Below, piece by piece: positions 7,186 to 35,243 of a stretch of DNA of 64,000 bases. The notes under the pieces were generated by a model. That model was not told the DNA's origin, made no database searches, and was given only the letters and a program-made list of their open reading frames with translations. Source of the stretch: a virus; the IMG/VR virus record IMGVR_UViG_3300050821_005436, positions 3,194-67,193 of that record, one strand, 5' to 3'. Both the position numbers and the translations under genes were made by a program. The stretch's first letter is position 1, and each line of letters starts with the position of its first letter.

Positions 7186-8130
7186 ATGACTAAGAAAATT
7201 CTAGTTACTGGTGGAGACGGATTTATAGGAACGTATGTTGTAAAACTTCTCTCAGAGAAGTACGGTTCTGATAATATCCTAAGTATGGATAATCATACAA
7301 CCTACCTTGATTTAATTCCTAGAGAAGAATTGACATTTCTATTAACAGAACGTCAAAAGATCGTAGGTGTTCCTCTAGCTTATTGCGATATTAATGACAA
7401 GAAACTAGTGAAACGAGCATTTGATATGTTCAAGCCGACACATGTTATTCATCTTGCAGCTTTTCCGCGTGCCAAAGTTGTTGATAAGAGCCCGTCATAC
7501 GCCAGCGAAACCTTAGTGTCAGGACTGCTTAATATTTTAGAAAATTGCTCTACTGTAGAGCATTTTGTTTATATCAGTAGCTCGATGGTCTATGGTGATT
7601 TCAATCATCCGATATCAGAAAATGAACTGTGTAATCCAAAAGGAACATATGGTATTCTTAAACTAGCAGGCGAGCAGCTAGTTAAAGATTGGGCATCTAG
7701 AATGGATAAAAATTATACAATTCTACGTCCTAGCGCGGTTTATGGTCAGCTTGATGTTAAAGATCGTGTTGTTAGTAAATTCTTTGAAGCTGCAATGAAA
7801 GATGAAGCATTAAACGTTCATGGTGCCGAACAATTACTAGACTTTACGTATGTAGAAGATTTAGCAGCTGGCATTTGTTCTACAATAGAAACACATAAAA
7901 GCTTTGGACACACATTCAATATGTCTAGAGGTTCTTCTCGGACATTATTAGATGCTGCTGAATGTATTACAAAAATTGTCGGTGCTGGACGAATCAATAT
8001 TCAATCCAAACACCCGATGTATCCATCAAGAGATTCATTAGATTGCAGTAAAGCATATGAATTATTAGATTTTACTCCTACTACTGAAATTGAAGTAGGC
8101 TTTCTCAAATATTATGATTGGCTAAAATGA
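7186..8130 (+). CDS. NAD-dependent nucleotide-sugar epimerase/dehydratase (extended SDR)
   Basis: TGGDGFIG, HLAA, SSSMVYG, YGILK (YxxxK), DFTYVEDLA. Confidence 0.9.
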   Translation: MTKKILVTGGDGFIGTYVVKLLSEKYGSDNILSMDNHTTYLDLIPREELTFLLTERQKIVGVPLAYCDINDKKLVKRAFDMFKPTHVIHLAAFPRAKVVDKSPSYASETLVSGLLNILENCSTVEHFVYISSSMVYGDFNHPISENELCNPKGTYGILKLAGEQLVKDWASRMDKNYTILRPSAVYGQLDVKDRVVSKFFEAAMKDEALNVHGAEQLLDFTYVEDLAAGICSTIETHKSFGHTFNMSRGSSRTLLDAAECITKIVGAGRINIQSKHPMYPSRDSLDCSKAYELLDFTPTTEIEVGFLKYYDWLK

Positions 8131-9233
8131 ATATTCCTTTCTTTGCACTAGACAGACAGTATCAAACGATTAGAACCGACATCCTCAATGCATATGACAA
8201 AGTAATGTCATCAGGCAAAGTAATCAGAGGTATTAATACTCAAATGCTTGAGGAGGAAATTGCTGCTAGATGTGATAGACAATTTGCAATCGCAGTTAAT
8301 AGTGGCACAAGTGCATTAATGGGTGCTATCATTTCTTTGCATTGCCAATCAAAGAATATCTTATGTCCAGCAGAAAGCTTTGTTGCTACAGCAAACGCAA
8401 TCTACTCTACATCAAATAATCCTGTGATTGTAGATTCTGATTACAGTGGCTTACTTAATATTAAAAAATTAACTAAGTCAAAGTTAGAAAATGCTAGTGC
8501 ATTGCTTTATGTAAATCTGTATGGTAATTGTTTGGATTATGATAACCTACGTGTAATGCTAGAGTTATATGGGATCAGCAATCTTCCTATCATTGAAGAT
8601 GCTTGCCAAAGCTTTGGTTCATCATATAAAGGAATTCCATCTGGAAAACTAGGAACAATAAGTTGCTTGAGTTTTGATCCTACTAAAAATCTAAACAATT
8701 ATGGATCAGGTGGAATGATCTTGACTGACGATATTCATGTTGCAGAATATATGCGAAACTTTAGATCAAATGGGACTGAAGTATATTCACACCGTTTAGA
8801 GTATGGAATCAATGTTCAAATGTCTGAAATGGATGCAGCTGGATTACTTGTAAAGTTGAAACATTTTGATAAATGGCAAGCACGTAGAACACAAATTGCT
8901 AATCACTATAATTCAGAATTTTCTAAAATATTTGCATTGGATATTCCTACCCAAACATTAGATTCTGTGTGCAACTGGCACAAATACGTGTTACGGGCAT
9001 CACATGTTGATAGAAATAAACTCAAGGAACATCTAGAGAAGAATGGCATTGAAACTAGAATTCATTATGATATGTCATTGCGCCAACATCAAATGAATAT
9101 TGACAAATACGATACTAATACTATTTCTCATAAAAACTGTCAGGAAAAGCTTAGTTTGCCCATCTATCCAGAGCTAAAGGATGAGGAAGTCGAATACATC
9201 ATAAAGGTAGTAAAAGAATACTACGGTAAATAG
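8127..9233 (+). CDS. DegT/DnrJ/EryC1/StrS family PLP-dependent sugar aminotransferase
   Basis: NSGTSAL, IIEDACQSFG, SFDPTKNL (PLP Lys), LSLPIYPEL; ATG at 8127 overlaps the upstream TGA. Confidence 0.9.
   Translation: MNIPFFALDRQYQTIRTDILNAYDKVMSSGKVIRGINTQMLEEEIAARCDRQFAIAVNSGTSALMGAIISLHCQSKNILCPAESFVATANAIYSTSNNPVIVDSDYSGLLNIKKLTKSKLENASALLYVNLYGNCLDYDNLRVMLELYGISNLPIIEDACQSFGSSYKGIPSGKLGTISCLSFDPTKNLNNYGSGGMILTDDIHVAEYMRNFRSNGTEVYSHRLEYGINVQMSEMDAAGLLVKLKHFDKWQARRTQIANHYNSEFSKIFALDIPTQTLDSVCNWHKYVLRASHVDRNKLKEHLEKNGIETRIHYDMSLRQHQMNIDKYDTNTISHKNCQEKLSLPIYPELKDEEVEYIIKVVKEYYGK
9227..9232 (+). promoter_or_regulatory. Late promoter core, 5 nt before the ATG (leaderless)
   Basis: TAAATAgtagtATG, no SD. 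Confidence 0.6.
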
Positions 9234-9237
9234 TAGT

Positions 9238-10122
9238 ATGAGACTCTATGAACTTAAACCAGGCCGAAAGAAGGAATTTCACCCTTCAAACACCGAAGAA
9301 CCTCAATCATTCACTACATTTTTAGCGAATTGTAGTGAATCTATTGCTGCTATGCGCGAAGCTAAAAGTTTCTTATATCGCGGAACTTATGGCGCTCATG
9401 ATATATTTTTGGGTCGCCCCAGGGAAAATAGAAAAACTACTGACACCTCTCCCACTTTGCAGAAAGAATGGGATAAAATTTATACCTCTGCAGGATTCAC
9501 TGCACTTCGCTCTAATTCTATTTTTTGTTCTGCTGATATTCATGTTGCAGATTCTTATGGCCATTCATATATAATTTTTCCTATAAATGGATTCTCATTC
9601 ACATGGAGTCCTAAGATTTACGATCTGTATAATCATATGCAACAACATGATATTAATAGGCCAGCAGATTTATACGTAAATCCAGATGCAAAAAAGAAGA
9701 TTGATTCTATAGCAGATAAAATCTATACTAACCTTAGGTATCCGCCTGGCAGCACGTATGGTGAATTAGAAGATGATTTATATTCATTAAGTTATCTATT
9801 CCAAGATATTATTATTGTTGATGATTATTCTATAAAAGGTCCTGCAAAACTTCTTCAGAAGATTATTGCATCCACTGCCAAAATAGAAAAGAAACACAAA
9901 ATAAATCTAGATAAAGTTCATGTTGCTATTAAAGAAATTCACGCGTTACTAAATTCATCAATAATGTCTCCAGAAACAGTCATTGAAAAATATCAATACT
10001 CAAATCAAGATTTTCCTGCAGCGTTAAAATCCAAAAAAGAAATAATTGTCAATGGTGAATATTATGCATTCATGAACAAGATATATTTCAAATATTTATG
10101 GGATGCACTAATTACTAAATGA
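9238..10122 (+). CDS. Paralog family member 1 (long form), ADP-ribosyltransferase-like motifs
   Basis: MRLYEL start; LYRG, ALRSNSIFCS, YG..YIIFP.NGF.FTWS, KEIIVNGEYY shared with four paralogs; function inferred. Confidence 0.55.
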   Translation: MRLYELKPGRKKEFHPSNTEEPQSFTTFLANCSESIAAMREAKSFLYRGTYGAHDIFLGRPRENRKTTDTSPTLQKEWDKIYTSAGFTALRSNSIFCSADIHVADSYGHSYIIFPINGFSFTWSPKIYDLYNHMQQHDINRPADLYVNPDAKKKIDSIADKIYTNLRYPPGSTYGELEDDLYSLSYLFQDIIIVDDYSIKGPAKLLQKIIASTAKIEKKHKINLDKVHVAIKEIHALLNSSIMSPETVIEKYQYSNQDFPAALKSKKEIIVNGEYYAFMNKIYFKYLWDALITK

Positions 10123-10721
10123 AGCTATACGAATTAGAAATCCAACCCGGTGAGAAACAAGAGCTAACACCAGAACTTAGTGAAACGTATATCTCACTTA
10201 TTAGACGAGATTGTTCGGAAGCACTTGCGGCAATGAAAGCTACAGGAAGATTTTTGTATCGTGGCATACCGCATGTAGAGTCTCGCGCATTCAAAGGTGC
10301 ATCAAGAGAAAATCGCAGACCACTCTCAACTAAAGCACATTTTCAAATATTAATTGATCAAATGTTGGAACAACGGGGATTCAAAGCATTACGATCTAAT
10401 TCTATCTATTGCACTTCTGCTGATGTTGAGGCTTCGTATTATACAAAAAGCGTAGGGCAAACTTACATGATATTTCCTATTAATGGATTTGATTACACCT
10501 GGAGTAGATACTCTGGCGATTTGTATGCTATGATGAATTGGCAAGACTATCAAATGTTAAACAATCATGCATTTGATGATTTTATGGAAAAATTCCAATT
10601 TACAAACAAGTATCTGAATGATGCCTTGACAGCTGGGCACGAAGTAATGGTCCATGGTCAATATTATGCATTTTCTAATAAAATATATGGCTATAATTTT
10701 GATAAGGAATTATTAGAATGA
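10119..10721 (+). CDS. Paralog family member 2 (short form), ART-like motifs
   Basis: MKLYEL; LYRG, ALRSNSIYCTS, HEVMVHGQYY; ATGA coupling. Confidence 0.55.
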   Translation: MKLYELEIQPGEKQELTPELSETYISLIRRDCSEALAAMKATGRFLYRGIPHVESRAFKGASRENRRPLSTKAHFQILIDQMLEQRGFKALRSNSIYCTSADVEASYYTKSVGQTYMIFPINGFDYTWSRYSGDLYAMMNWQDYQMLNNHAFDDFMEKFQFTNKYLNDALTAGHEVMVHGQYYAFSNKIYGYNFDKELLE

Positions 10722-11356
10722 AAATATATGAAATCGAAGCTGGTGAAAAAGAACCTATTGCACCTGAAGACGAAATTACAGATAGACTTAATCATGTCAT
10801 CCCATTGGTTCAACAGCATTGCACCCAATCACTCCATGCCATGAGAGAGACTGGTAAGTATTTGTATAGAGGCATCAAACAGTCTCCGCCTTTAGTATTC
10901 TTAGGTCAATCCAGAAATAATAGAAATCCATCGGCTTCGCCAGGACAGTTTCAACGAAATGTTGATGCAGCATTTAATATGGCAGGGTTCAAGGCATTAC
11001 GTTCAAATTCAATTTTCGTCTCCTCTTCTATAAGTGAAGCTAAAAATTATAGTTATGAAGGCGTATATTTGATTTTTCCTGTCGATGGATTTTCCTTTAC
11101 ATGGAGCCCAAGAATAAGTGATTTATATATTGATGAATATAATATATTTGATGATTATACCAAACGAACTTTATTTTTCAGAGAAGACGACGCTTCTCCA
11201 GAATTACTAAAAGAATTTTTAGAAAGATCACTCTATAGAAACACTGATTTTACATCAGCGATTGAATCAACTAATGAAATCATGATAAGTGGCAAATATT
11301 ATGCGATTCATTCAAAATACGCAGAACAGCCTGGTCTTAAACAATTGATGATTTGA
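10718..11356 (+). CDS. Paralog family member 3 (short form), ART-like motifs
   Basis: MKIYEI; LYRG, ALRSNSIFVSSS, NEIMISGKYY; ATGA coupling. Confidence 0.55.
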   Translation: MKIYEIEAGEKEPIAPEDEITDRLNHVIPLVQQHCTQSLHAMRETGKYLYRGIKQSPPLVFLGQSRNNRNPSASPGQFQRNVDAAFNMAGFKALRSNSIFVSSSISEAKNYSYEGVYLIFPVDGFSFTWSPRISDLYIDEYNIFDDYTKRTLFFREDDASPELLKEFLERSLYRNTDFTSAIESTNEIMISGKYYAIHSKYAEQPGLKQLMI

Positions 11357-14234
11357 AATATTCATCCAACCATTTCCATTCGAAAGATAACAACAATTTA
11401 CTTAGTTCGCCATTGACGCTTTCATAATATGTGATAGCGTCTTTTGCACCTTTAAGGCACATATCTGCATTCTCGCCTTCGGCAACATTCAACCAAATAT
11501 CCAATCTTTCTTTTGCAATATAGTCGCCATTGTCTGCAAAATATTTCAGCTTGATGCATTCACGGAAGGCTGTTCTCCAACACACCTTACTATCTCTATT
11601 AAAGTGACTAACACCGCTAAGCATAGGAACAACTTCATGTTCTGCTGACAATGTGAAGTCAAGACCGTGCGTATCGTCCATACCTAATACAATATGTTTG
11701 TTATAAGCAATAACAGCTTGGTGGCCATATTCTAATCCATTGACAGGATTCTTTGCATGAAAAATATAGTGTTTAGGTTTCTGTAGGCGGTCTGGCTGCC
11801 AATTAAAATCAAAGGTCGTATCAATTTCTAACTTAGCAAATACGTTGAATGCCCATGGCGTCATACTTGCATTTGATGCTGCCTTATATGCTGCTGATCT
11901 ACCATTCACACCATCAACTCTAACAATACGATTTTCAAATCCTTTATCCAGAATATATTCGTTTAGTTTCATCCACATGTCATTAGCCATCGATTCACCG
12001 TTACTAATAAACACAATATCAAGTGGATTACTTTGATACCAATCTTTCTTATCTGTTGTAATGAATGGATAATCGTATATTTGAGAATTGAAATAGTTCT
12101 TAACGTCTTTTGGGACCAATGCAAACTCTGCACCTTTACTCAACACATGCACTGATCTATCTTTGCCTGACCATAGATTTGGTGTATATGTAAGAACGTT
12201 CCCTTCATATTTTTCAGGTAAAAACAATGCATAATTAGTAGAAAAAACGTGATTTTCGATTACTTGAGGCAAGGTTTCTTCAGTAAATCGCACAGTTTCA
12301 ACGTCATACCTATTAACTGGCTGTACTGATACGTAATTCACTGTTTTAAAGTCCTCTAACTTACTAATTTGCTGTCTCTGCGCTTTAAATTCTGTAATTG
12401 GAACATAAAATGTATCACCATACTTCTGATCATTGCTAGGAAATACGTGCATCATGTTATGTTGCCAAGCACCTGGATGCCAGCTAAAATCAAATGTTGA
12501 ATAATCACATATGCTAGAGATAACCCAAATATATTTTGTCTCAGACTGATTAGCGCATCGCGTTATAGCATCCAAATAGTTATCAACAAATCGCATCGTT
12601 TTGATGTTAGAATACTTTTGCTTTAGAATATCTAATTGTGTTTTGCTTTCTGGATTAAAATGATCTAGATACCAAATATCAATTTGTTCCTCACTATTAT
12701 CCACTGGTTGATTCTTGACAAAATTAAGATTTGGCCAATCTTTGATATCTTCACACCATGTTTTATTTCGATTTAACTCAAACCTGGACAATAGAATTGT
12801 ATCAGTCCATTTATCCCATTTGCTACCGAATACATGCGTCATAGACAGTTCCCAGGGTTCTGGGGACCAACTGAAATCAAATTCATCATAAACAAATTCA
12901 CTGCTGATAATCCAGAATCTGTCTGTATTACATTTATTAGCACAACGGATTGCTGTTTGTTGCAAATTATTAACGAGTCTAGTTTTTTGTATCTGAGGAT
13001 AGTTGTTCTTTAATGATTCAAATCTTTCAGCACTTTCTTTGTTGCCTTTGTCTAAAAAGAACATATCAAGTGATGCTGTATTTGTAGTCTTTATATCAGC
13101 AACGTAATTCAATTCTTTATTACCAGCTAGATACGATGGTGCATTAATGAAATATGTTTCACTGTGCTGTTGCCATTGTGACGCAAATACATGAACAAGA
13201 TCAATTTGACTTTGATCCGGATGCCAACTAAAATCGAATTTATCGTAATTCAATTCTTTACTCAATGCCCAAAACTTTTCAGTCGGATGTTCGCTTATTA
13301 AATCTTCTAACGTAGATAATATGAAATAGCGAGGGGAATTAATACCACTAAGATGAACCCGTACATCATTGATATAATTGCATCCACGAGGCGAGCTTGT
13401 TCCTGAAAAATATGAAGTCTCAGAAGTTTTTTGCCATTGCGAAGGGAAAACATGTTTATAATCCTTTTGACTTTCATCTGGATGCCATGAGAAATCAAAC
13501 GTAGAATAATCTGCATTAGGATCAAGCGTCCAATATTGCATTTCAGGTATTGCTTTAGCTTTTAACTGCGGGACATATTTTTCTTGTGTCGCATTTTTTG
13601 AAACATATATTGGTCCGCCTGTCGTTTGCCACTGAGTTCCAAATTTATAAATATATGGAGGGTCATTAGGATGTGGGCACCAACTAAAATCAAAGCTACT
13701 CTTATCGATATTGGCGGGAACAATCCAGTTATCAGATGGAATAGTTTTTGCTCGAAGTTCATTATGGAATTTTGGAGCAACTGCATTAATGCAATGATAT
13801 TCGGGACCACCAATGTCCCACCATACCGTACCGAATATGTGAATGTAAGATGGCTCGTCTGGGTCAGGGTGCCAGGAGAAGTCGAAACTATCTACATCTA
13901 TGTTTTCAGGGACTACCCAGTTTTCGACACACGGTTTCCTAACAACTCGTTGCTCAGTTCTATAATTTTTAATTAACGTTGATTCAGTTAGATTTGCTGG
14001 AATGAAATACGTTCCAGCATTGCGCTGCCACTGCGAACCAAACACATGAGTATGATGCTGCTCCCATTTAGGTGGCATCCAATAAAAATCAAAATTGTCG
14101 TAATCTGTATCTGCTGTAATCACCCAACAAAACTTAGTTCTGCTTTGTTTTGCAGCATCGAAAATATCTACAGCACGTTTTTCATGTGGAAATAGATTTG
14201 GTTTAGTAGAAGTGGTGTAGAATACGTCGAACAT
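11337..14234 (-). CDS. 965-aa repeat protein built from degenerate glycosyltransferase-like units
   Basis: Eight FDF[SYN]WxP motifs; the C-terminal ~230 aa align by eye with the 312-aa GT at 32008..32946. Confidence 0.65.
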   Translation of the reverse strand: MFDVFYTTSTKPNLFPHEKRAVDIFDAAKQSRTKFCWVITADTDYDNFDFYWMPPKWEQHHTHVFGSQWQRNAGTYFIPANLTESTLIKNYRTEQRVVRKPCVENWVVPENIDVDSFDFSWHPDPDEPSYIHIFGTVWWDIGGPEYHCINAVAPKFHNELRAKTIPSDNWIVPANIDKSSFDFSWCPHPNDPPYIYKFGTQWQTTGGPIYVSKNATQEKYVPQLKAKAIPEMQYWTLDPNADYSTFDFSWHPDESQKDYKHVFPSQWQKTSETSYFSGTSSPRGCNYINDVRVHLSGINSPRYFILSTLEDLISEHPTEKFWALSKELNYDKFDFSWHPDQSQIDLVHVFASQWQQHSETYFINAPSYLAGNKELNYVADIKTTNTASLDMFFLDKGNKESAERFESLKNNYPQIQKTRLVNNLQQTAIRCANKCNTDRFWIISSEFVYDEFDFSWSPEPWELSMTHVFGSKWDKWTDTILLSRFELNRNKTWCEDIKDWPNLNFVKNQPVDNSEEQIDIWYLDHFNPESKTQLDILKQKYSNIKTMRFVDNYLDAITRCANQSETKYIWVISSICDYSTFDFSWHPGAWQHNMMHVFPSNDQKYGDTFYVPITEFKAQRQQISKLEDFKTVNYVSVQPVNRYDVETVRFTEETLPQVIENHVFSTNYALFLPEKYEGNVLTYTPNLWSGKDRSVHVLSKGAEFALVPKDVKNYFNSQIYDYPFITTDKKDWYQSNPLDIVFISNGESMANDMWMKLNEYILDKGFENRIVRVDGVNGRSAAYKAASNASMTPWAFNVFAKLEIDTTFDFNWQPDRLQKPKHYIFHAKNPVNGLEYGHQAVIAYNKHIVLGMDDTHGLDFTLSAEHEVVPMLSGVSHFNRDSKVCWRTAFRECIKLKYFADNGDYIAKERLDIWLNVAEGENADMCLKGAKDAITYYESVNGELSKLLLSFEWKWLDEYFKSSIV

Positions 14235-14250: not shown

Positions 14251-14262
14251 GCATATTATAAC

Positions 14263-15165
14263 ATGAAAATAAACGAACTTCAAGCTGGTGAGAAACAATC
14301 ATTCGATCCATCAAACACCAAAGAAGGTCATAAATTTAATGACTTCATGATTCAGTGTAGTCAATCTATTGCAGAAATGCAGAAGGTCGGTAAATTTTTG
14401 TTTCGAGGTATTAACAATGCACCTAAAATCTTCATTGGGGTGCCGCGAGCAAATAGAAAGGCCCTCGACACTGACCAAGACGTAAATAATGCATTTGATG
14501 AAATATTGAAAGCAAGTGGATTCAAGGCGTTGCGTGGCAATTCTATTTTTTGTTATGGTGGAGATCCATATGCTGTGTCAAACTTCGGAAAGCCCTATAT
14601 GATTTTTCCTAAAAATGGATACCAATTAACTTGGAGTCCTAAGGTAGAAGATTTTACAAACAAGTTGCCATATCAATTCCAGCCAGAGGATTTTTGGCAA
14701 TTTTCTGAAACAGCAATGAAAGCCAAAGAGGAAATGCAGGACGATGAGTCTCGAAATGAAATTTTCAATCTACTTGATAAGTTAGAAAACAAATTTTATC
14801 ATTCTAATACTCAGCCTGAGGAAAGACTGATCATACGAGACCTGAAGGCTGAATTGGGTAAGCTTGTATATAATGGTGATCAGAAGATATTCAATATCAA
14901 AAAATTACTTAATTTTGATAAAGATACTGATTACTGCATGAACTATATGCCATACATTCGAAAACTTGCTGAAGCACAAAAATTATATCTTTCAACAAAA
15001 GGACATGCAGATTCAATGGATGTTATCAAAGGTTTGAATTATCAAAATACTAACTTAGCGGCAGCTATAGTAGCGAACAAAGAAATAATGATTAGCGGTG
15101 AATATTATGCATTTTCTGCAAAAGACTATCTGAAACCAATGGAAGAGGCTTTGTTAGAAAAATGA
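14263..15165 (+). CDS. Paralog family member 4 (long form), ART-like motifs
   Basis: MKINEL; LFRG, ALRGNSIFC, YMIFPKNG, KEIMISGEYY. Confidence 0.55.
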   Translation: MKINELQAGEKQSFDPSNTKEGHKFNDFMIQCSQSIAEMQKVGKFLFRGINNAPKIFIGVPRANRKALDTDQDVNNAFDEILKASGFKALRGNSIFCYGGDPYAVSNFGKPYMIFPKNGYQLTWSPKVEDFTNKLPYQFQPEDFWQFSETAMKAKEEMQDDESRNEIFNLLDKLENKFYHSNTQPEERLIIRDLKAELGKLVYNGDQKIFNIKKLLNFDKDTDYCMNYMPYIRKLAEAQKLYLSTKGHADSMDVIKGLNYQNTNLAAAIVANKEIMISGEYYAFSAKDYLKPMEEALLEK

Positions 15166-18344: not shown

Positions 18345-18347
18345 AAT

Positions 18348-22497: not shown

Positions 22498-22502
22498 TTC
22501 GC

Positions 22503-27330: not shown

Positions 27331-28558
27331 AAAGAGTTTTATTAATTAACAACTCAGCTAGTTCTGGAGCAACATCGAAAATATTTTCGTTCCTCTGAAA
27401 ATCCAATAATTCAGTGCTAATTGTTAATTGGTCACTTAAGTCTTGCCCAGGTTGCATCATAAAGCTGATCAATCCTTCAGCAGAAGAAACCAAATTGTTA
27501 TCAAACTCAAATTTAGATTTCTTCAAATATTCAACATAGCTTTCTAGTTTAATTTTTGCATATTGTTTAAATTCATCACTTGTATTCTTAACACAATAAT
27601 ATTCTTGTGTGTGCAAAAGGTTAAACAAAATTTCTGGTCTTGCACCATCTAACCAACCAGCTTCTCTAAAATATTTATGAATGTCTTCTAGACGTGCAAT
27701 ATTAAAAACACTGATTGTAGGAGCAAACCAAACACAAACATTTGTATGTTCTTTAGTATAAATCATCATTTCATCAATATTTTTCTTAACGACTGACCAA
27801 TCTGTTCCATAGCGCCAATATTCAGCACGATCCTCAATTTCATCTATACTAAAATTCATAGTAACACAATCAAATTTATGCCAGGCATCCCTGAAATCAA
27901 ATGATTTATAAGTTAATTTACTACCATTGGTAGAATATTGAATATTCACATCCGTTCTATTTTCTTCAATCAACTTATTGATAATTTTATAGTGATCTTC
28001 CATTAATAATGGTTCGCCGCCCGCAAAATGCATTGCCTTAACTTGATTAGTATTCTGTTCAATAATTTGATTAAGACCAATTTCTGATGCACTTCGAATG
28101 TGTGTTACTTTGTCACTTTTAATTCCTGATGCCCTATCTGACAGTTGCTTATATGTGCTACTCAATTGTGGTCCGCATGTTCTGCATGCATAGTTGCATA
28201 AATTGCTTGATCTAAAATCCCAATTCAACATTTTTACATCTGCTGTTCCATCTTCTTGTGTAGAATCTATCAACTCTTGGGCATGATCTAAAAATTGGTG
28301 ATTGTATGATTTTCTAAGAGATACTTGTCCAGCCTCTTCTGCTTTCCAACATGTTTTGCATACATCTAGTTTTTTATCTGCTAGAATGTCAATTCTAAAT
28401 TTCTTAAATTTTTCATTGTTCATTATAGCGATGCCAGACTCATCTAGCTGCCCAAATGAATCAGCAGGATTCACTGCACAGCATGGATACACGTTGTTGT
28501 TTGGCCATAAGTGCATAGAGACCCATGGCGCCACACAGAGATGTTTTCTTTCAGTCAT
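27299..28558 (-). CDS. Radical SAM enzyme with N-terminal Twitch-like domain
   Basis: LCVAPW...PCC...CKTC; CNYACRTC; AGGEPLL; YSTNG. Confidence 0.9.
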   Translation of the reverse strand: MTERKHLCVAPWVSMHLWPNNNVYPCCAVNPADSFGQLDESGIAIMNNEKFKKFRIDILADKKLDVCKTCWKAEEAGQVSLRKSYNHQFLDHAQELIDSTQEDGTADVKMLNWDFRSSNLCNYACRTCGPQLSSTYKQLSDRASGIKSDKVTHIRSASEIGLNQIIEQNTNQVKAMHFAGGEPLLMEDHYKIINKLIEENRTDVNIQYSTNGSKLTYKSFDFRDAWHKFDCVTMNFSIDEIEDRAEYWRYGTDWSVVKKNIDEMMIYTKEHTNVCVWFAPTISVFNIARLEDIHKYFREAGWLDGARPEILFNLLHTQEYYCVKNTSDEFKQYAKIKLESYVEYLKKSKFEFDNNLVSSAEGLISFMMQPGQDLSDQLTISTELLDFQRNENIFDVAPELAELLINKTLYDKQSITRKN

Positions 28559-28854
28559 TTCTTCAATTTAAACGCCAATGCGTCTAACCTATTTTCAAAT
28601 TTAATAAAGAATTTGGCTTGCACAAAGGGGGAACAATTAACGTCTTGCTCTTCCTTTGTTTCTACTAATATTTTTACACTTTTATACATAGAAAAATCTA
28701 TAGTTGATAATATCTTTTGCACTGCATGATTTACAAAACGAATATGACCTAGATCATATTCATGTTCTGTATCGTAAAAAGACGCATCATATCTATCTTC
28801 AATAATGCCATAGCTTTGTGTATAAACTAAAACTTTTAGATCGTCATCATTCAT
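28555..28854 (-). CDS. Small hypothetical protein (same C-terminal motif)
   Basis: IKFENRLDALAFKLK. Confidence 0.65.
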   Translation of the reverse strand: MNDDDLKVLVYTQSYGIIEDRYDASFYDTEHEYDLGHIRFVNHAVQKILSTIDFSMYKSVKILVETKEEQDVNCSPFVQAKFFIKFENRLDALAFKLKK

Positions 28855-30385
28855 TTGAGTCAGGATTAATAATATCCCTGACAGTCTGAGGTTCTACATA
28901 TTCTTGACTGCCAGGATTTGCTTTTGAGGGTGAAAGAATCCATCCCTCCTCTTTAGCTTTATTTAACAACTCCTTATGCACGAACTCCATCGCTTTGGTG
29001 TTATCACCATTAATCAATTCTTTAATTGGTTTCAACTCTGTCATCGGAAGACTTAGATACCAATCTTTCAATGCAGGAAACGTTTCAACGAAGTTTTTAC
29101 CTCTACGTTGATCGTATTCAGCAAAGAATGTTCTAAAATCCCTTTGGCGAGATTCCAAACTACTAACGTTGCTATGTCCCTCATCAACTTCACGAATATA
29201 TGTTATCATGCGTTCGATACCTTCGACTTCATGTTGAGCTAATCTGTATTTGTTTGCACTCAACCAACGTTCTATCCACAGTGCTTGCTTTAATCGAATA
29301 TCTTCTGGTAGTGTATTAACACTCATAAAGCTAGGGAAACGAAGTATATTGAAACTCATACAAGCATGATGGTCTCCATATGTTCGTTTCAGGTCAAGCA
29401 TATCATCCATGAAGTCTGTAATGCTTCCTAAGCACAATGCATTTATTGTCATCATAACATGCGTGTTTTTGCAATTCCCTTCTCGCAGCATGTAATCAAA
29501 ATTATTGAGCCATTCATCATAGTTGAGTCCATCGCGAATATATTCTGCTTGTTCTCCCCAAGCTTCGCAACTTGTATAAAGATGAAAATCTTCAAAACTG
29601 TGTGTTGCATTACATAGACGTTCAATCAACTCTTTCTTTGCACCAAGATTACTATTGACTGCTAAACGAACTTTACAATCTGGATTCTGTTCCCACCAGT
29701 CTATAAGCTTCCAGAAGTCTGGGCTCATAGTTCCTTCTCCGCCTGTAACACGTAGTTCAACTAAACTATGCTGTAACTCATTATTCCACCATTGCCAAAA
29801 TGCTTCAGTATATGGATTGTCCTTATTCTTAATTCCATATGGCATTGCCCAACTTCCATCTTGATGATAGGCACCTGCACCATCACTTACGAGGTTTTGA
29901 TAAGCGCCATTAACTTTAATATCATGCGCCCAAGTTGAGCTAAAACTTGCATTGCAGTATGAACAAGCAAAGTTGCACAAATTATCAAACGAAATTTCTA
30001 ATGTCTTTGGGGCAATATCTTCAAAATTTTTATATTGTTCAATGCTCTTTTGAATGTCTTCCTCTGAATGAATGATACTTTTATAAACTCTATCACTCAC
30101 TAAATCCTTGCCTAAATTTTCTACTCGCCAACAGTAATCGCATTCTTTGGTTTGTATGCCATCAATCATTTCTTTTCTTACTGTCTTTCTATATTCTGTG
30201 TTTAGCAATGCTTTGTAACTTGCTTTTAGTTCAGTAAGAGGAATCTTTGATGCTGGTGGATGATGGCATGCAGTGGAAGTTCCAGACCCTAACCAAACTG
30301 TTCCGTTAAGTCCTTTTGCTGCACAATAAGTTGGGCTAATTGCATCCAATACCCGTTTCTTGTAATCTGAGTTTGATTCATTCAT
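28847..30385 (-). CDS. Radical SAM enzyme with N-terminal Twitch-like (CHH) domain
   Basis: YCAAK...ACHHP...CDYCW; CNFACSYC; TGGEG. Confidence 0.9.
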   Translation of the reverse strand: MNESNSDYKKRVLDAISPTYCAAKGLNGTVWLGSGTSTACHHPPASKIPLTELKASYKALLNTEYRKTVRKEMIDGIQTKECDYCWRVENLGKDLVSDRVYKSIIHSEEDIQKSIEQYKNFEDIAPKTLEISFDNLCNFACSYCNASFSSTWAHDIKVNGAYQNLVSDGAGAYHQDGSWAMPYGIKNKDNPYTEAFWQWWNNELQHSLVELRVTGGEGTMSPDFWKLIDWWEQNPDCKVRLAVNSNLGAKKELIERLCNATHSFEDFHLYTSCEAWGEQAEYIRDGLNYDEWLNNFDYMLREGNCKNTHVMMTINALCLGSITDFMDDMLDLKRTYGDHHACMSFNILRFPSFMSVNTLPEDIRLKQALWIERWLSANKYRLAQHEVEGIERMITYIREVDEGHSNVSSLESRQRDFRTFFAEYDQRRGKNFVETFPALKDWYLSLPMTELKPIKELINGDNTKAMEFVHKELLNKAKEEGWILSPSKANPGSQEYVEPQTVRDIINPDSNE

Positions 30386-31763
30386 AAAATTCTCTATATT
30401 CTGGGAACGTGGTTAAAAAATCTGTTCCTCTACGTTGATCGTATTCTTTGTAAAAACTTTTAAAATCTGCCAATCGTTTTTGTAAATCAACATTGTCGAG
30501 TGGTGTCAAAGCATATTCCTTTAGTCGCGCAATTTGATCCAATTCTTCTAGATAAAATCTACCAGCCGCATCCTCGCTATGATTTCTATCATGCATATTC
30601 ATCCATTGATCAATATCATTAAGATACTTTAACTTAAATTCAGTAGGTAAAATTCTAACGTCTTGAAACTGTGGCCACCGCAAATAACTAATTACAAACG
30701 GGATGCGGTTAAATCCATCATCCTCGTTGTATGCTCGCCTGAAACTCCATATATCATACATGAAACCCTTGAATGAAGTCAAACTCAATGCATTAAACGT
30801 AATCATAAAATTTATACGGTAATTACTAGGTGTTTCGTCTAAGTATCTATCTACATTTTTTATAAATGTATCATAATCCATTCCATATCTGATATAATTA
30901 GCTTGAATGTCTGACGCTTCGCAGCTTGTATATAATTCAAATTCTTTGACCTTGCCGTTTAGCTTATTTGCATAGTCAATTATTTTGTCTATTAATTGGT
31001 CAGGAACCATCATGTTTGAATTTACTGATAATTTCAAATTTGGCATAGGATTCTGATAAATCATATCGAGCAATTTCCAGAAATCTTTACTTAACAATGG
31101 TTCGCCGCCCGTAATTCTTAGCTCTACTAACGTTTTACTTAGTTCAGGCCACCAACCCCAGAATGCATCTACATATGGATTATGATCTTTGTGAGGAATT
31201 GGCATCTTCCCTTGTTGCTTAATCCATTCTATATTACCTATCCCAACTTTATATTCACCATACCGCTCAATTTCTTCCATCCAACTAGAAGAAACGTCAG
31301 GGGAACAATACATACAAGACATTTGACATACACTGCTAAACGAAATTTCTACGTATGTTGGCGTTATATTGTTTAATGGGCCATTCGTTAATACTTTATC
31401 AGCATACGGATATGCCCAGCTTTCATCTGTGCTTTTGTATGTCCTATCACTGATATGATCATTACCTAAATCCTCAATGTTCCAACAATAGTTGCATGCA
31501 GATGGGCGACGAGATTCCATCATATCCAATCGTTCTAGCTTCTTTTCTTTTGTATTATGTAGTGCTGAATAATTGTTCTTAAGTTCATCCACTGAAATTT
31601 TATTTGACTTACAATGATGACAGGATGACGTATGACCGTTGTGTAAGTTGATAGTCGTTTGTAGCCATTTAGCTAAACAAATACTATCGCTACCTGCCTT
31701 AATTTCTATTTCAGTCATTCTCGATAACATGTTATCGACGTTGATCTGGTTTGGTGATTTCAT
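30378..31763 (-). CDS. Radical SAM enzyme, paralog of 28847..30385
   Basis: ICLAK...SCHHC...CNYCW; CQMSCMYC; TGGEPLL; shared EYDQRRG.xF..TFP C-terminus. Confidence 0.9.
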   Translation of the reverse strand: MKSPNQINVDNMLSRMTEIEIKAGSDSICLAKWLQTTINLHNGHTSSCHHCKSNKISVDELKNNYSALHNTKEKKLERLDMMESRRPSACNYCWNIEDLGNDHISDRTYKSTDESWAYPYADKVLTNGPLNNITPTYVEISFSSVCQMSCMYCSPDVSSSWMEEIERYGEYKVGIGNIEWIKQQGKMPIPHKDHNPYVDAFWGWWPELSKTLVELRITGGEPLLSKDFWKLLDMIYQNPMPNLKLSVNSNMMVPDQLIDKIIDYANKLNGKVKEFELYTSCEASDIQANYIRYGMDYDTFIKNVDRYLDETPSNYRINFMITFNALSLTSFKGFMYDIWSFRRAYNEDDGFNRIPFVISYLRWPQFQDVRILPTEFKLKYLNDIDQWMNMHDRNHSEDAAGRFYLEELDQIARLKEYALTPLDNVDLQKRLADFKSFYKEYDQRRGTDFLTTFPEYREFYE

Positions 31764-32011
31764 TAACTGTGTTTTAATCTCTCTACTAATTTTTCTTGGT
31801 CTGTCAATTCTTTATTATAAATTATGATTCTTCCTTCAAGCAAGCATTCTTCATAATCGTGAATATCTGACAGGAACGAGTCTTCACCTTCATATTGAAC
31901 TTCAATATATGGCCATTTTGAATCTGAGTCTATGACCCTTATAATCATTCCAAACTCGTGTATAGTTTTAGAATATATTGAGCAACCAACCGGAATCGTC
32001 ATTTGGCTCAT
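31763..32011 (-). CDS. Small hypothetical protein (82 aa)
   Basis: Coupled ORF filling the gap in the operon. Confidence 0.6.
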   Translation of the reverse strand: MSQMTIPVGCSIYSKTIHEFGMIIRVIDSDSKWPYIEVQYEGEDSFLSDIHDYEECLLEGRIIIYNKELTDQEKLVERLKHS

Positions 32012-32946
32012 TGTAACCCTCTGTTGAAATTGAGAACATCCATTTCAGTAATCATTGCATTAGAAACATTCTTATGTGCGTTTGCATAATGATGCTTAAA
32101 AAACTTGCTTTGTTCAGCATTCATGTCGATTATAGGAAGATTCAATCTACTCCTGAGCATCGGAGTAATGTGATTAATATCATGGACTTGGTTCCAAATT
32201 TCTTTAATCTTGTCAAAGTCATGCACTTCAATATAATCCCAATCTGTTAGCATTGTTAGATACGTTCCTAAGCGGGCACCGTAAATTGCATAATTGCCAT
32301 TTTCTATATCAGCACCAACATTCATCCAGATCATTAAATTATCTAAATTGCGAGAATGCACTTTCTTTTCAAAATCTACAAGTGATGGCTTAGAACCTCT
32401 ATCCAAACACATCTTCACACCTTCTCTAAATCCTGCACGAAATGCTTGAAACGCACTTTGATTAGGATATGTTGTGCTATACGTATTATGTAGTGCGATA
32501 TATTTAGGATCAAAGCAAAATTCAACATTGTTTTCGTCTTTTCCGTCGCTGTTTTCATGTGTCTTCATGTTGTTTATGAAATCTTTAGTCCATAAACTTA
32601 ACCCACCGTTACCATAACAAAGACCATTGATATGGTTGCGTGCTTTCCAACGAAATACGCAATCATCTTGCCAATCCTGAATACATAATTGTAGATTAAA
32701 GAATTCAGGATCAGGAATATTGTCGCCGTCAATCAAAATAAATCTATCTGTCTCACTTACAGCGGCAGCGGCTTTATGGGCAGAATCTGAACCCTTGACT
32801 CCATCGATGCGTTTTGCCCAGGGCACTATGTTTTGAACTTTAATCCAAAATTCCTCTTTTTTCGGCTCATCATAGGTCAAAAAGATAATATCTAAATCTG
32901 CTACGTCTATAATCTTATCACTACTAATGTATTCATTTTGAAACAT
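32008..32946 (-). CDS. GT-A fold glycosyltransferase-like protein
   Basis: DIIFLTYDE, AHKAAA, FILIDGD (DxD), YGNGG. Confidence 0.65.
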   Translation of the reverse strand: MFQNEYISSDKIIDVADLDIIFLTYDEPKKEEFWIKVQNIVPWAKRIDGVKGSDSAHKAAAAVSETDRFILIDGDNIPDPEFFNLQLCIQDWQDDCVFRWKARNHINGLCYGNGGLSLWTKDFINNMKTHENSDGKDENNVEFCFDPKYIALHNTYSTTYPNQSAFQAFRAGFREGVKMCLDRGSKPSLVDFEKKVHSRNLDNLMIWMNVGADIENGNYAIYGARLGTYLTMLTDWDYIEVHDFDKIKEIWNQVHDINHITPMLRSRLNLPIIDMNAEQSKFFKHHYANAHKNVSNAMITEMDVLNFNRGLQ

Positions 32947-33277
32947 AAGAATCTCTCTCAGTTATCGAATCATCTGCTAAAATTAGCATATTATTCTTTA
33001 CGGTTTTAAAATTTCCATCTTCTACTTTTTCTAAGTAGATAGTGTTAATACTAGATAGGGACATATTATGAATCTCACCATTCTTTACTTTATATTTTCC
33101 CATCTGAATTGCTATAAATGCGTCAAGATCAACTACGATATAATCACCATCTTTATCTTCTATAGTGCAATCCGTAATATTTCCTTTAGCATCATAATAT
33201 ATTTTATGCTCTATTGGTGGCGGTGCGACAAAAGTTGAGTCTGCTAATGCCTTCCAAAATTCATCCTCATTGGACAT
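32933..33277 (-). CDS. Hypothetical protein (probable start MSNEDEF at 33277)
   Basis: In-frame ATG near the upstream stop removes a ~100-nt overlap. Confidence 0.6.
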   Translation of the reverse strand: MSNEDEFWKALADSTFVAPPPIEHKIYYDAKGNITDCTIEDKDGDYIVVDLDAFIAIQMGKYKVKNGEIHNMSLSSINTIYLEKVEDGNFKTVKNNMLILADDSITERDSYVSK

Positions 33278-34124
33278 ATTTCTGTATAACCTCATCTGTT
33301 GCGTAATCTTTTTGATAATAATGAAATGGATACAATTGTCTAGTAAAACCAACTGTATGATTACAATCATCATCTATTTGTGAATAGAGTTTAGTGGTCC
33401 AATCCTCATCGATACCCCAACCCTGAATTCCACCTTTCATATGAACAATTTTCGGGATGCTTAGGTCAGGAATGTAAAAATTTTCTTCCCCTAATATCTT
33501 TGCTGCAATAGCAAAAACAACATCTGTGGTTGGATATGTATCTCTACAATTAATAAGCAATTCGTCTCTGAAGTAATCCCAATCTTGATAAATCTTTCTT
33601 GATAAATCAAAGAACTCTGCTGATTGCATTGAATATCTGAAATAGAAAAATGCTGAATATAGATTTGGTAAGCTATTTTCATCAAACAATCGCCTATATG
33701 CTCTAGAATTTGAAACATTTCCCAGATAATCAACGACTTTTGTTGTGAATAAAACATCTTTCAACTGATATACTGACCACCAATGGTCTATGTTGCGATT
33801 GAAAGTCATGTCACAATCTAGCTTAACTGTTTCTTTGAATGGCGTAAGCCAATAAGCTTTCCATTCGTCACCTAGTTTCCAACTTGGGTCTTCATTCTCA
33901 TTTGAATCAGGAATCTCTATCACATAATCAAACACTTTTTTATGTTTGTCAGTAATTTCCTTGAACGTCTCTGAATCAACTGCAACTGCATATAAATTAG
34001 TTTCTTGTGTTTTTTTAATTGACGCTGCTTGCAAATATGCTAGACGCAAGTAATCACATTTGCTAGTATTTTTCGCAAATGTGAAGTATCCTTTTTGTGC
34101 AGAGAATTCACCTCTAATTAGCAT
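33267..34124 (-). CDS. GT-A (GT8-like) glycosyltransferase
   Basis: TPFKETVKLDCDM (DxD), TDVVFAIA, IVHMKG. Confidence 0.7.
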   Translation of the reverse strand: MLIRGEFSAQKGYFTFAKNTSKCDYLRLAYLQAASIKKTQETNLYAVAVDSETFKEITDKHKKVFDYVIEIPDSNENEDPSWKLGDEWKAYWLTPFKETVKLDCDMTFNRNIDHWWSVYQLKDVLFTTKVVDYLGNVSNSRAYRRLFDENSLPNLYSAFFYFRYSMQSAEFFDLSRKIYQDWDYFRDELLINCRDTYPTTDVVFAIAAKILGEENFYIPDLSIPKIVHMKGGIQGWGIDEDWTTKLYSQIDDDCNHTVGFTRQLYPFHYYQKDYATDEVIQKYVQ

Positions 34125-34945
34125 TCGTATTTCTCCAACTTGTCTAGTAATTCTTCATCTTGACACGACCATTTTCCTAAGATATGCACGTTATGATTTT
34201 TTATGTAATCAACATATTTTTTAGAATTCTTCTCGTATGTGTAGATCAGCCCTCTACCTTCTTTATAATCAATTATTTTAACATCCGTCGATAGCATGCA
34301 CATTTCTCCCGGAAGAGATTCTGCTCCAACATTACCTCGTGCTGCTAATGCAATAGTTAATGCATAATCATTTCTATATGGTTGAGGGTCTACTCCAAAT
34401 AATTTATGATAATAATCATATCTGTCTCTTACTTGTTTCATCATGTAAAATGTTGATCCTGCTGCATACGATCGGTCAAAATAACATACTGTCGCCCAAC
34501 TCATAGGTAACGTATATTTTGATATTAGACTGCTGCCAGCAAAAGAATCTCTGTTAGTAGGATCGAATACTTTAGAATAGCACATGAATTTATTGTTCGT
34601 TGCAAATAGCATTTTCAGTGATGGTTCCAAAACAAAATAATCAGCATCAATAAGTAATGTTTTATCGTAAGGAGATAAATCATATGCATCTGGACGAGAT
34701 TGATTGAACCATTTTATATTTTGGTATTCCTCCCCATCAAACATTGCCCTATTCGTATAAGACCCTTTATCTATAATGATACTATCTTCTGCATGTTTGA
34801 AGTTGCAGTCTTTATCTGTAATGATAGTTGTAGGTATTCCCAAATTTTTCTTGACAAATCCAGCTGCAACATCTGCTAATCTAGTGTATTCAAAATCGCC
34901 GTTGTTTATAGCGAAAATTATGCATCCCTTAGATTTGTTTGCCAT
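34118..34945 (-). CDS. GT-A (GT8-like) glycosyltransferase, paralog of 33267..34124
   Basis: SPYDKTLLIDADY (DxD), RNDYALTIA, VHILGK. Confidence 0.7.
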   Translation of the reverse strand: MANKSKGCIIFAINNGDFEYTRLADVAAGFVKKNLGIPTTIITDKDCNFKHAEDSIIIDKGSYTNRAMFDGEEYQNIKWFNQSRPDAYDLSPYDKTLLIDADYFVLEPSLKMLFATNNKFMCYSKVFDPTNRDSFAGSSLISKYTLPMSWATVCYFDRSYAAGSTFYMMKQVRDRYDYYHKLFGVDPQPYRNDYALTIALAARGNVGAESLPGEMCMLSTDVKIIDYKEGRGLIYTYEKNSKKYVDYIKNHNVHILGKWSCQDEELLDKLEKYEC

Positions 34946-35243
34946 TTCTGATCCTCAGAATTTTCTGATACTCAACTTCCCAATCATTCATGATTGTTTG
35001 GTAACATTGCTTTAGTTCATCTAATAATTTTTCACGTTCGATTCGGATTGGATTTCCATAACTATCCTCAATTACATTGACTTCTACAATTGATAGGAAT
35101 GTAATAAGTTCCGGGGAAGCCTTAAATAAGCCACCGTTATGTGCGACGTATAATTGTTGTTGAGATTTTTCTTTGAGTTCTAGCTTTTTGGCTGCATGAT
35201 TAAATGCAGCCTGAGCCATACTATTGATATTTGAGTTATTCAT
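34929..35243 (-). CDS. Hypothetical protein (104 aa), first gene of the GT/radical SAM operon
   Basis: ORF directly below a sigma70-type promoter. Confidence 0.7.
   Translation of the reverse strand: MNNSNINSMAQAAFNHAAKKLELKEKSQQQLYVAHNGGLFKASPELITFLSIVEVNVIEDSYGNPIRIEREKLLDELKQCYQTIMNDWEVEYQKILRIRNGKQI

Follow-up and report, generated by a model that had tools for sequence, protein, structure and literature searches.

Gene Content and Setting of the Interval

The 64,000-nucleotide window analysed here comprises nearly all of a 67-kb viral contig from IMG/VR (IMGVR_UViG_3300050821_005436), which is estimated to represent 19% of its genome. The feature under study is the 28-kb interval at 7186–35243 of this window, to which all coordinates refer. 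An earlier sequence-only reading had listed in this interval a short-chain dehydrogenase/reductase (SDR), a DegT aminotransferase, an O-carbamoyltransferase, six radical S-adenosylmethionine (SAM) enzymes, a set of SGNH-like proteins, glycosyltransferases (GTs) and a multi-repeat GT-like protein, and this gene content proved to be real throughout. Its placement of the interval was also correct, with T4-type tailspike genes on one side (70–4470; Pfam and PHROG matches) and a baseplate module on the other (51806–61677). The assignment of the interval to the building and tailoring of a sugar or glycan is well supported by three GT-A-type transferases, nucleotide-sugar enzymes, bacterial homologues in glycan loci and a conserved link to fibre genes. 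As a whole, the interval is a mosaic, in which a conserved glycan-building core is accompanied by lineage-specific additions and by genes foreign to the pathway.

No match was obtained when 20 kb of the window were compared by megablast with 50,697 phage records. At the protein level, the sole cultured relative among these records was the Ralstonia jumbo phage RsoM2USA, with a genome of 344 kb. The matching DNA sequencing runs were soil metagenomes, and no RNA run was among those listed. In the following, L-numbers denote homologous loci and G001–G004 denote related genome records. Statements on published work refer to excerpts of the papers cited.

A Conserved Transferase Core Adjoins Fibre Genes

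The conserved module is headed by a tail-fibre-like protein of 458 aa with 22% serine plus threonine (36276–37652, minus strand), which matched PHROG tail-fibre and virion families and, weakly, the chaperone domain Peptidase_G2. An ATAAATA motif is located 30 nt upstream of its gene. In 11 of the 12 lineages that have GT genes within 10 kb, the gene for a homologue of this protein is the immediate upstream neighbour of the GT genes. On the same strand follows a fibre-associated protein of 324 aa, recognised by its Ser/Thr-rich composition (26%; 35281–36255), with homologues at the same position in L007/L008, L043–L046, L009 and L014. This Ser/Thr-rich protein is a candidate glycan acceptor. 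From 35243 down to 24296, the genes overlap one another without gaps on the minus strand. The first gene of this enzyme operon encodes a conserved protein of 104 aa (34929–35243), with homologues in 10 loci and in RsoM2USA.

The next two genes encode GT8-like paralogues. The profile of GT8-like glycosyltransferase a (285 aa; 33267–34124) matched glycogenin-1 with an E-value of 1.2e-6; the match covers profile positions 3–110, including the D-x-D motif, and is thus confined in the PDB comparison to the N-terminal third. GT8-like glycosyltransferase b (275 aa; 34118–34945) was linked to the GT8a family by hhalign with a probability of 99.5%, and its residues D100 and D102 are invariant. The Pfam model Glyco_transf_8 did not match the GT8-like proteins even at an E-value of 5, and the GT8b profile retrieved nothing significant from PDB sequences. 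An open reading frame (ORF) of 146 codons follows (32933–33373, minus strand). Its hydrophobic N-terminus falls within the overlap with the upstream gene and the homologue in L008 has 123 aa; the true start is probably later than that of the ORF.

The third transferase is a protein of 312 aa with a GT-A fold (32008–32946, minus strand), modelled by AlphaFold2 (AF2) with a predicted local distance difference test (pLDDT) score of 91.9; D73 and D75 are invariant in 32 sequences. The top Foldseek matches were SunS (1.4e-4) and, second, A64R of Paramecium bursaria chlorella virus 1 (PBCV-1; 2p6w, 3.9e-4), followed by ArnC and TarP (E-values up to 4e-3), and the VIA structure match to B4GALNT1 had a Z-score of 9.1 and a root-mean-square deviation of 3.2 over 142 residues. 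Since MobA and IspD score Z 8.1–8.5, the fold alone cannot distinguish a GT from a nucleotidyltransferase. The combination of the DxD motif, an N-terminal strand and a YDEP motif presumably marks a GT2-like enzyme. The family profile found nothing significant among PDB sequences, and a kinship with the GT8a family was dismissed because hhalign showed no relation. More than 8000 metagenome relatives were found at 65–80% identity, all of them without a name or a Pfam match, while only one cultured phage among the 50,697 records encodes a member. Thus, with two GT8-like paralogues and one GT-A protein, the three DxD glycosyltransferases noticed at the outset were substantiated. An 82-aa protein encoded next (31763–32011, minus strand) occurs in L007/L008 only.

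The GT-A domain recurs in the multi-repeat protein of 965 aa encoded far from the core (11337–14234, minus strand). Domain and motif searches revealed one C-terminal GT-A-like domain of the 312-aa family (independent E-value 4.9e-28), two to three partial copies and eight FDFxWxP motifs. As every GT-A copy has lost the DxD motif, the 965-aa protein is probably non-catalytic.

Radical SAM Enzymes

After the transferases, five radical SAM proteins of the NCBIfam family NF033640 (N_Twi_rSAM, with an N-terminal twitch domain) are encoded on the minus strand. Membership was assigned when the whole-protein score exceeded the curated cut-off of 170 bits, and the scores of the five proteins ranged from 295 to 323 bits: 461 aa (30378–31763; 314.0 bits), 512 aa (28847–30385; 299.3 bits), 419 aa (27299–28558; 322.7 bits), and 429 and 386 aa (24296–26738; 295.2 and 304.8 bits). 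The 461-aa enzyme has an orthologue in every module and adjoins the GT-A gene in L020, L012, L025, L036, L040, L047 and RsoM2USA, and the 512-aa enzyme is 51% identical to a RsoM2USA protein. A sixth radical SAM protein (317 aa; 23354–24307) is encoded together with a 284-aa protein on the plus strand (22503–24307), and the two are adjacent in L043 as well. This sixth protein matches PF04055 (E 5e-12) and lies outside NF033640, with 26.3 bits versus the cut-off of 170. All six proteins scored above the Pfam cut-off, in agreement with the number counted from sequence.

In 28 aligned twitch radical SAM sequences, four N-terminal cysteines (C29, C48, C90 and C93), the CX3CX2C motif (C146-C150-C153) and the triplet G219-G220-E221 are invariant. 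Hence, the radical SAM copies look catalytically intact, as judged from these residues. The Pfam model SPASM matched residues 5–78 and 8–71 of two NF033640 members. No characterised member was found in the literature on twitch radical SAM enzymes and NF033640.

Three small proteins of 97–99 aa are interleaved with the radical SAM genes on the minus strand (99 aa at 28555–28854, found in L007/L008 only; 99 and 97 aa at 26738–27330). In alignment, a C-terminal strand-helix motif (FD/FE...A-L/F-x-F) is all that the three have in common, and they are confined to the closest relatives. In the viral loci L023 (2320–4380) and L050 (4197–6278), a CHASE2-sensor adenylate/guanylate cyclase is encoded just upstream of an array of six radical SAM genes.

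The Carbamoyltransferase and a Conserved Micro-Peptide

The O-carbamoyltransferase (496 aa; 16246–17736, minus strand) is of the TobZ/NovN/NodU type. Its Kae1-like N-terminal and YrdC-like C-terminal domains both scored above the Pfam cut-offs (Carbam_trans_N 135.7 bits, Carbam_trans_C 167.1 bits), and its PDB matches were led by NovN (E 2.2e-50), followed by GdmN and TobZ down to an E-value of 3e-32, so that the original assignment stands. In 21 of the 31 distinct viral lineages examined, a carbamoyltransferase gene and a twitch radical SAM gene are no more than 10 kb apart.

Near this gene, a conserved ORF encodes a basic peptide of 34 aa that ends in DPFIY and a terminal K (18348–18452, minus strand). 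Across the loci examined, 35 DPFIY-type peptide ORFs were found, including three bacterial loci and RsoM2USA, and DPFIY is invariant at the C-terminus of the 19 peptides aligned from phages and bacteria. In 19 of 27 viral cases and 2 of 10 bacterial ones, the peptide ORF ends where the carbamoyltransferase match begins, which points to a close coupling of the two. A complex of both was predicted with a score of 0.46, versus 0.00 for the best control; at least 96% of contacts were shared between the runs, and the partner had a pLDDT of at least 73. In the benchmark, 116 of the 157 solved complexes and 2 of the 215 mismatched pairs attained that mark. However, a score no higher than 0.60 was obtained for just 18 of the 157 solved complexes, and for both mismatches that passed. 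The predicted binding lends weak support.

These findings raise the prospect of a peptide-based product, akin to a ribosomally synthesised and post-translationally modified peptide, in which the DPFIY peptide would be a substrate, primer or scaffold for the radical SAM enzymes, the carbamoyltransferase and the GTs. Modification would fall on the C-terminal Phe-Ile-Tyr: the tyrosine would be carbamoylated or glycosylated and the radical SAM enzymes would cross-link or oxidise the peptide, giving a glyco-peptide or a small molecule derived from the peptide, either formed in the course of infection or passed to the fibres. Such a role is suggested by the fact that radical SAM enzymes with twitch/SPASM domains are typical peptide maturases, and the protein encoded at 24296–25456 gave weak NCBIfam matches, far under the cut-offs, to SkfB, YhhB and MftC-type models. 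The 97–99-aa proteins between the radical SAM genes would also fit, and glycogenin-type GT8 enzymes glycosylate tyrosine. In the pyrroloquinoline quinone (PQQ) and mycofactocin pathways, a small tyrosine-containing peptide is processed by a radical SAM/SPASM enzyme, and a glycosyltransferase acts later. As in these systems, the window encodes a small peptide with a conserved tyrosine close to its C-terminus, together with a glycosyltransferase and with radical SAM enzymes that would bear auxiliary clusters. However, the peptide tracks the carbamoyltransferase rather than the radical SAM enzymes or the GTs: it is absent from L020/L012/L036-type loci, despite radical SAM, GT and carbamoyltransferase genes there, and from G004, where the carbamoyltransferase is also absent. 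A DPFIY match in G004 was discarded as a chance match in the middle of an ORF. Moreover, only 3 of 72 bacterial radical SAM loci contain the peptide, the 97–99-aa proteins do not extend beyond the closest relatives, and no protease or exporter was seen. Unlike in the PqqA and MftA systems, there is no peptidase, and sequence similarity to these systems is lacking (NCBIfam scores far below cut-off). A peptide-based product is therefore regarded as improbable.

Gene Order Is Conserved in the Core and Variable at the Periphery

Forty-four viral loci encoding relatives of the 512-aa radical SAM protein represented the 31 distinct lineages. In 12 of these, GT-A and GT8 genes are present within 10 kb, and all 12 share the same order: (fibre, Ser/Thr-rich protein), small protein, GT8, (GT8), GT-A and then one to seven radical SAM genes, as a rule accompanied by the carbamoyltransferase gene. 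With the fibre gene at its head, this order is collinear in 11 of the 12 GT-bearing lineages as well as in RsoM2USA and the complete genome G002, and it is retained across phage lineages down to 27–57% protein identity. GT-A and GT8 genes were present in all five related records, including 3/3 complete genomes.

In RsoM2USA, the module is located at 216–226 kb in the same order, with an SDR gene five genes upstream, and a second radical SAM gene with a carbamoyltransferase gene is found at 123–128 kb. The module is flanked by ORF356, ORF359 and ORF361, which were identified as virion proteins by mass spectrometry (PMC8504454); the excerpted text of that paper makes no mention of radical SAM or carbamoyl genes. 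Upstream of the fibre gene of the window, a virion structural protein of 4425 aa is encoded (38433–51710, minus strand; phrog_10938, 1084 bits), with ATAAATA preceding the gene. Its RsoM2USA counterpart is ORF361, the protein detected in virions (PMC8504454). In G002, the genes that separate the radical SAM gene from the carbamoyltransferase gene encode a protein with a weak GDSL-like match, a haloacid dehalogenase-type phosphatase, a sugar-phosphate nucleotidyltransferase, a SPASM radical SAM protein and a class I/II aminotransferase. The comparison of loci, including G002, thus indicates that the transferase core stays constant while the tailoring set varies, a pattern shared with the glycan islands of bacteria.

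The periphery behaves differently from the core. The SDR (7186–8130, plus strand) matched PF01370 (E 4.9e-39), with the motifs SSSMVYG and YGILK (SSS...YxxxK), and its best PDB relative was the epimerase-domain protein 6zl6. It had been described as an epimerase or dehydratase, of which the epimerase-like SDR was borne out, while the dehydratase part was not, because RmlB-type models gave 116 bits versus a cut-off of 365. NDP-sugar 4,6-dehydratases have a T-D-E active-site motif; the SDR here reads SSSMVYG. The adjacent DegT aminotransferase (8118–9233, plus strand) was verified by PF01041 (E 6e-77, 259.7 bits); it reaches no equivalog cut-off (PseC, 176.8 versus 423.5). A DegT gene was present in only one of the five related records and in 0/3 complete genomes. 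SDR and DegT are peripheral and lineage-specific. The carbamoyltransferase gene was found in four of the five records, and in one relative it is 124 kb away from one radical SAM gene.

The SGNH-like set, first counted as four or five, comprises five paralogues, all on the minus strand: 244 and 257 aa (20961–21695 and 21692–22465), 274 and 258 aa (18449–19273 and 19270–20046, with ATAAATA 23 nt before the latter gene) and a divergent fifth of 203 aa with GDA in place of GDS (17733–18344). The first pair and the fifth were assigned by alignment, and the second pair by AF2 and Foldseek. The AF2 model of 19270–20046 had a pLDDT of 90 and yielded 28 PDB matches at E ≤ 0.001 (top match 4rsh, 3.4e-5); the matches listed were almost all of GDSL/SGNH type, including TesA, PatB and carbohydrate esterases. 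Pfam was silent, as the best GDSL model, Lipase_GDSL_3, gave 14.6 bits (E 0.041) versus a cut-off of 27, and the profile of the paralogues found nothing significant among PDB sequences. SGNH enzymes carry the nucleophilic serine in a G-D-S motif (block I) and a D-x-x-H motif in block V. In 24 sequences, S9 of GDS/GCS is nearly invariant, as is H235 within P-G-x-H-V-N, and there is no Asp three residues upstream of H235. Their ESM-Atlas neighbours include DUF6071 clusters, and DUF6071 adjoins radical SAM and carbamoyltransferase genes in two bacterial loci. Only 19 relatives were found among 5.8 billion proteins, and the set is confined to close kin.

Amid the SGNH genes, a fibre-like protein of 259 aa, assigned by its Ser/Thr-rich composition (26%), is encoded on the plus strand (20194–20973). 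Between this gene and the convergent gene 20961–21695, a 12-bp GC-containing hairpin with a T-run (20979–21005) is likely a bidirectional terminator, judging by its form and position.

Other genes of the interval are foreign to a sugar pathway. Three phrog_11975 paralogues (9238–11356) and two more (14263–15827), all on the plus strand and assigned by PHROG matches, encode proteins of 200–300 aa, in which R48 (LYRG), S94 (SNS) and E268 are invariant in all five. Pfam, NCBIfam and PDB sequence searches gave no match for them, and the Atlas model bears a weak likeness to Arr, a rifampin ADP-ribosyltransferase, and to PARP (template modelling score 0.33–0.51). ADP-ribosyltransferases of the R-S-E type combine the ART fold with an R / S-x-S / E triad. 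The phrog_11975 proteins may belong to a ModA/ModB-like ADP-ribosyltransferase family that has expanded in tandem, and G001, a close relative, encodes at least nine of them. A deoxycytidine monophosphate (dCMP) deaminase (15824–16249, minus strand; Pfam and PHROG, with a MafB19-deam match too) belongs to nucleotide metabolism. Relaxed Pfam scans of the unnamed proteins of the window returned only noise.

Accordingly, the proposal of a single 28-kb pathway failed at the periphery. DegT is missing from the three complete genomes, the SGNH set has few relatives, the GT8, GT-A and radical SAM genes of G004 are scattered over three separate places, and the interval also harbours the dCMP deaminase and the five phrog_11975 genes. 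Since the periphery is not co-inherited, the 28-kb interval is a conserved core with lineage-specific additions rather than one inherited unit. It could be asked whether there is a common product at all, or whether independent accessory genes accrued in an insertion-tolerant zone between structural modules. The seven strand switches (11356, 14234, 15827, 20046, 20973, 22465 and 24307), the lineage-specific expansions of paralogues, the different phrog_11975 copy number in G001, the unrelated genes and the loosely inherited periphery would be expected from such accretion. Against this stand the order of the core, kept over long divergence, the gap-free overlaps from 35243 to 24296 and the occurrence of the same families together in bacteria. 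Accretion without a common product is thus distinctly improbable.

Bacterial Homologues Are Found in Glycan Loci

Bacterial genomes were scanned with a closer set of radical SAM sequences, as the full 28-member alignment was too diverse. Relatives of the 461-aa type were found in 72 bacterial loci, 54 of which belong to Bdellovibrionota by record title. A GT-A homologue accompanies the radical SAM gene in 10 of the 72 loci, a carbamoyltransferase likewise in 10, and the DPFIY peptide in the 3 already mentioned. On long chromosomal contigs, the neighbouring genes encode GT2 and GT7-like transferases, UDP-glucose dehydrogenase, asparagine synthases, an ABC-2 exporter pair, methyltransferases and carbamoyltransferases. 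In the bacterial locus L110, a GT-A gene, two GT2 genes and a radical SAM gene lie beside dnaB, ftsK and dapA, a setting that renders DNA glycosylation unlikely there. This glycan-locus context is the strongest argument that the radical SAM enzymes and their partners act on sugars rather than on DNA. Among the contigs labelled bacterial, some (L053, for instance) contain the phage module in full and may be phage sequences binned in error.

Because the bacterial homologues reside in surface-polysaccharide-like loci with ABC-2 exporters, the phage enzymes might instead remodel the glycans of the host surface in the course of infection, for instance to prevent superinfection or to help progeny leave the cell. 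However, the window encodes no membrane protein, polyprenyl-phosphate transferase, flippase, polymerase or exporter, and the module is linked to virion genes. Remodelling of the host surface is therefore highly improbable. No membrane segment was predicted in any of the enzymes of the window, which suggests an intracellular acceptor. With all enzymes soluble and the bacterial homologues in glycan loci, the interval is best read as encoding a sugar pathway that acts on an intracellular target. Decoration of the virion or of another intracellular protein with a glycan is given about an even chance, and the virion fibres as its target are favoured but unproven.

Promoters and Evidence Weighing Against a Fibre Target

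Several observations weigh against a glycan destined for fibres. First, in 19 of the 31 lineages, the radical SAM arrays, mostly with a carbamoyltransferase, have no GT gene within 10 kb. Eighteen of these 19 lineages also lack a fibre gene, and some of the arrays adjoin PhoH and nuclease genes. Second, the GT8, GT-A and radical SAM genes are dispersed in G004. Third, the literature searched on phage virion glycosylation describes no glycosylated phage fibre.

Fourth, the timing is ambiguous. Several units had been proposed to start at TAAATA late promoters. Such sites do occur no more than 60 nt ahead of 14 of the 50 genes, structural genes included; (A)TAAATA is found 20–36 nt before structural genes and before 14263, 20046 and 22465, and ATAAATA lies 23–36 nt ahead of seven genes, six of them structural. 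The window also encodes a late sigma factor. The full T4 late consensus TATAAATA is depleted in the window as a whole, with 2 sites found versus 9.7 expected. The proposal does not extend to the main operon, 35243 to 24296, which has no TAAATA. Instead, its only intergenic gap contains a sigma-70-like site (35278–35250; TTGACA-17-TG-TACAGT), a type of site that, like terminator-like sites, occurs in the window at chance level. Late co-expression of the main operon with the fibre genes is thus unproven.

Hypermodified DNA as an Alternative Target

Further points against a protein acceptor come from DNA hypermodification, in which the GTs, the carbamoyltransferase and perhaps the radical SAM enzymes would decorate 5-hydroxymethyl-pyrimidines as a defence against host nucleases. 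A characterised phage carbamoyltransferase makes 5-carbamoyloxymethylcytosine, and in modified contigs its gene neighbours thymidylate synthase, dCMP deaminase and MafB19 deaminase genes (PMC8670742). In the supplement of the same study, Carbam_trans_C was present on 19 selected versus 33 unselected contigs, and Radical_SAM was weakly enriched (33 versus 1239, corrected p 0.045). Phage GTs with a GT-A fold glycosylate 5-hydroxymethylcytosine (5hmC; bioRxiv 10.1101/2023.12.21.572611). In the window, the carbamoyltransferase gene abuts the dCMP deaminase gene, with a thymidylate synthase gene 9 kb away, and the sigma-70-like promoter of the operon is possibly early.

Such modification starts with a dCMP/dUMP hydroxymethylase, a thymidylate synthase homologue that has Asp where the E. 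coli enzyme has N177 and an acidic residue in place of L143 (PMC8670742, PMC13326640). The excerpts further describe a subgroup of 5hmC carbamoyltransferases that is marked by residues at TobZ positions 408, 421 and 423 and pairs with an Asp177 thymidylate synthase homologue. RsoM2USA (7.6–8.5 kb), G002 (39.8–40.5 kb) and G003 (285 kb) each encode a second thymidylate synthase homologue with N177D and L143D, resembling dCMP hydroxymethylase, and the G004 homologue (236–248 kb) has Asp143 and Asn177. Since the relatives carry these Asp177/Asp143 homologues, hydroxymethylated DNA acceptors probably exist in the lineage, and, to judge from these residues, the DNA of this jumbo-phage lineage is probably hypermodified.

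The thymidylate synthase of the window itself (6280–7185), encoded with dihydrofolate reductase (DHFR) at 5774–7185, was rejected as a hydroxymethylase. With Asn177 (PFNIASY), Leu143 (LPPCH), a score of 330.7 bits and DHFR adjacent, it is canonical, in a contig that covers about 19% of the genome. The proximity of the deaminase gene could likewise not be upheld as a conserved feature, since a homologue was found in only 1 of 45 loci and lies 14 kb away there. In G004, the thymidylate synthase homologue belongs to a separate, classical DNA-modification cluster with a 5-hydroxymethyldeoxyuridine DNA kinase, two TET-associated glycosyltransferases, an APH-type kinase and a nucleotidyltransferase, far from the GT8, GT-A and radical SAM genes. 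The hydroxymethylase-like genes of RsoM2USA, G002 and G003 have no GT gene next to them, and in these three genomes the module may act on either target. The conserved neighbours of the GT genes are fibre genes, not replication genes, and the partnership of radical SAM, carbamoyltransferase and GT-A genes also exists in bacterial chromosomes, inside glycan loci. Finally, the DNA-GT motif R...DDD...EDY/F, as given in the excerpt of bioRxiv 10.1101/2023.12.21.572611, is not evident in the 312-aa protein, which has DGD. Overall, it is considered rather unlikely that the products of this interval act on DNA.

Proposed Pathway and Comparison with Known Systems

Under the favoured interpretation, a glycan placed on a protein inside the cell, the two glycogenin-like GT8 enzymes and the GT2-like GT-A enzyme would transfer sugars from nucleotide sugars to the acceptor, most likely the Ser/Thr-rich fibre proteins encoded just upstream. 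The five twitch radical SAM enzymes, each of which would hold an auxiliary Fe-S cluster in its N-terminal four-cysteine twitch domain, may then edit the sugars by dehydrogenation, epimerisation or C-C/C-H chemistry in a BtrN-like manner. The SGNH-fold proteins would add or take off O-acyl groups, and the TobZ-type enzyme would O-carbamoylate a hydroxyl, using carbamoyl phosphate and ATP. In lineages that possess them, SDR and DegT would provide an amino sugar. We infer each reaction, the order of steps and the acceptor from enzyme families and gene order.

The tailoring of aminoglycosides and aminocoumarins unites the same enzyme classes (BtrN, DegT-type enzymes and TobZ/NovN/GdmN). BtrN is a twitch radical SAM dehydrogenase. 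However, its twitch domain is C-terminal, whereas that of the window enzymes is N-terminal, and the window has no gene for a cyclitol or polyketide scaffold and presents a phage structural context. Within the catalogue family NF033640, the five proteins conform in having a Cys-rich N-terminal domain followed by the CX3CX2C core, while arrays of 4–7 copies beside fibre genes have not been described for it. Chloroviruses, giant viruses and mycobacteriophages are known to encode glycan pathways of their own; to our knowledge, none of these pathways is combined with radical SAM arrays. The glycans on mycobacteriophage capsids and tail tubes (cited in PMC12619734) and PBCV-1 A64R likewise involve soluble viral GT-A enzymes encoded near structural genes, but these mycobacteriophage and chlorovirus systems lack radical SAM arrays, carbamoyltransferases and SGNH sets. 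Systems for 5hmC carbamoylation and DNA glycans (PMC8670742, bioRxiv 10.1101/2023.12.21.572611, PMC13326640) share with the window the carbamoyltransferase family, the GT-A fold, accompanying sugar enzymes and the co-occurrence of dCMP deaminase and thymidylate synthase. They differ from it in that the thymidylate synthase of the window is canonical, its conserved neighbours are fibre genes and its bacterial counterparts lie in glycan loci. The literature searched on phage radical SAM enzymes, phage carbamoyltransferases, virion glycosylation and RsoM2USA describes no such operon.

With more than 8000 nameless GT-A relatives and a single cultured phage among 50,697 records, the module represents abundant, conserved and unstudied phage biology. 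If fibres are decorated, host range or immune evasion would gain a new chemical layer; if DNA is decorated, the module would represent a new hypermodification. With either target, a first reaction for NF033640 and a role for the conserved micro-peptide would follow. If, instead, the peptide is the primer or substrate, the module would make a new class of natural products of abundant environmental jumbo phages and predatory Bdellovibrionota.

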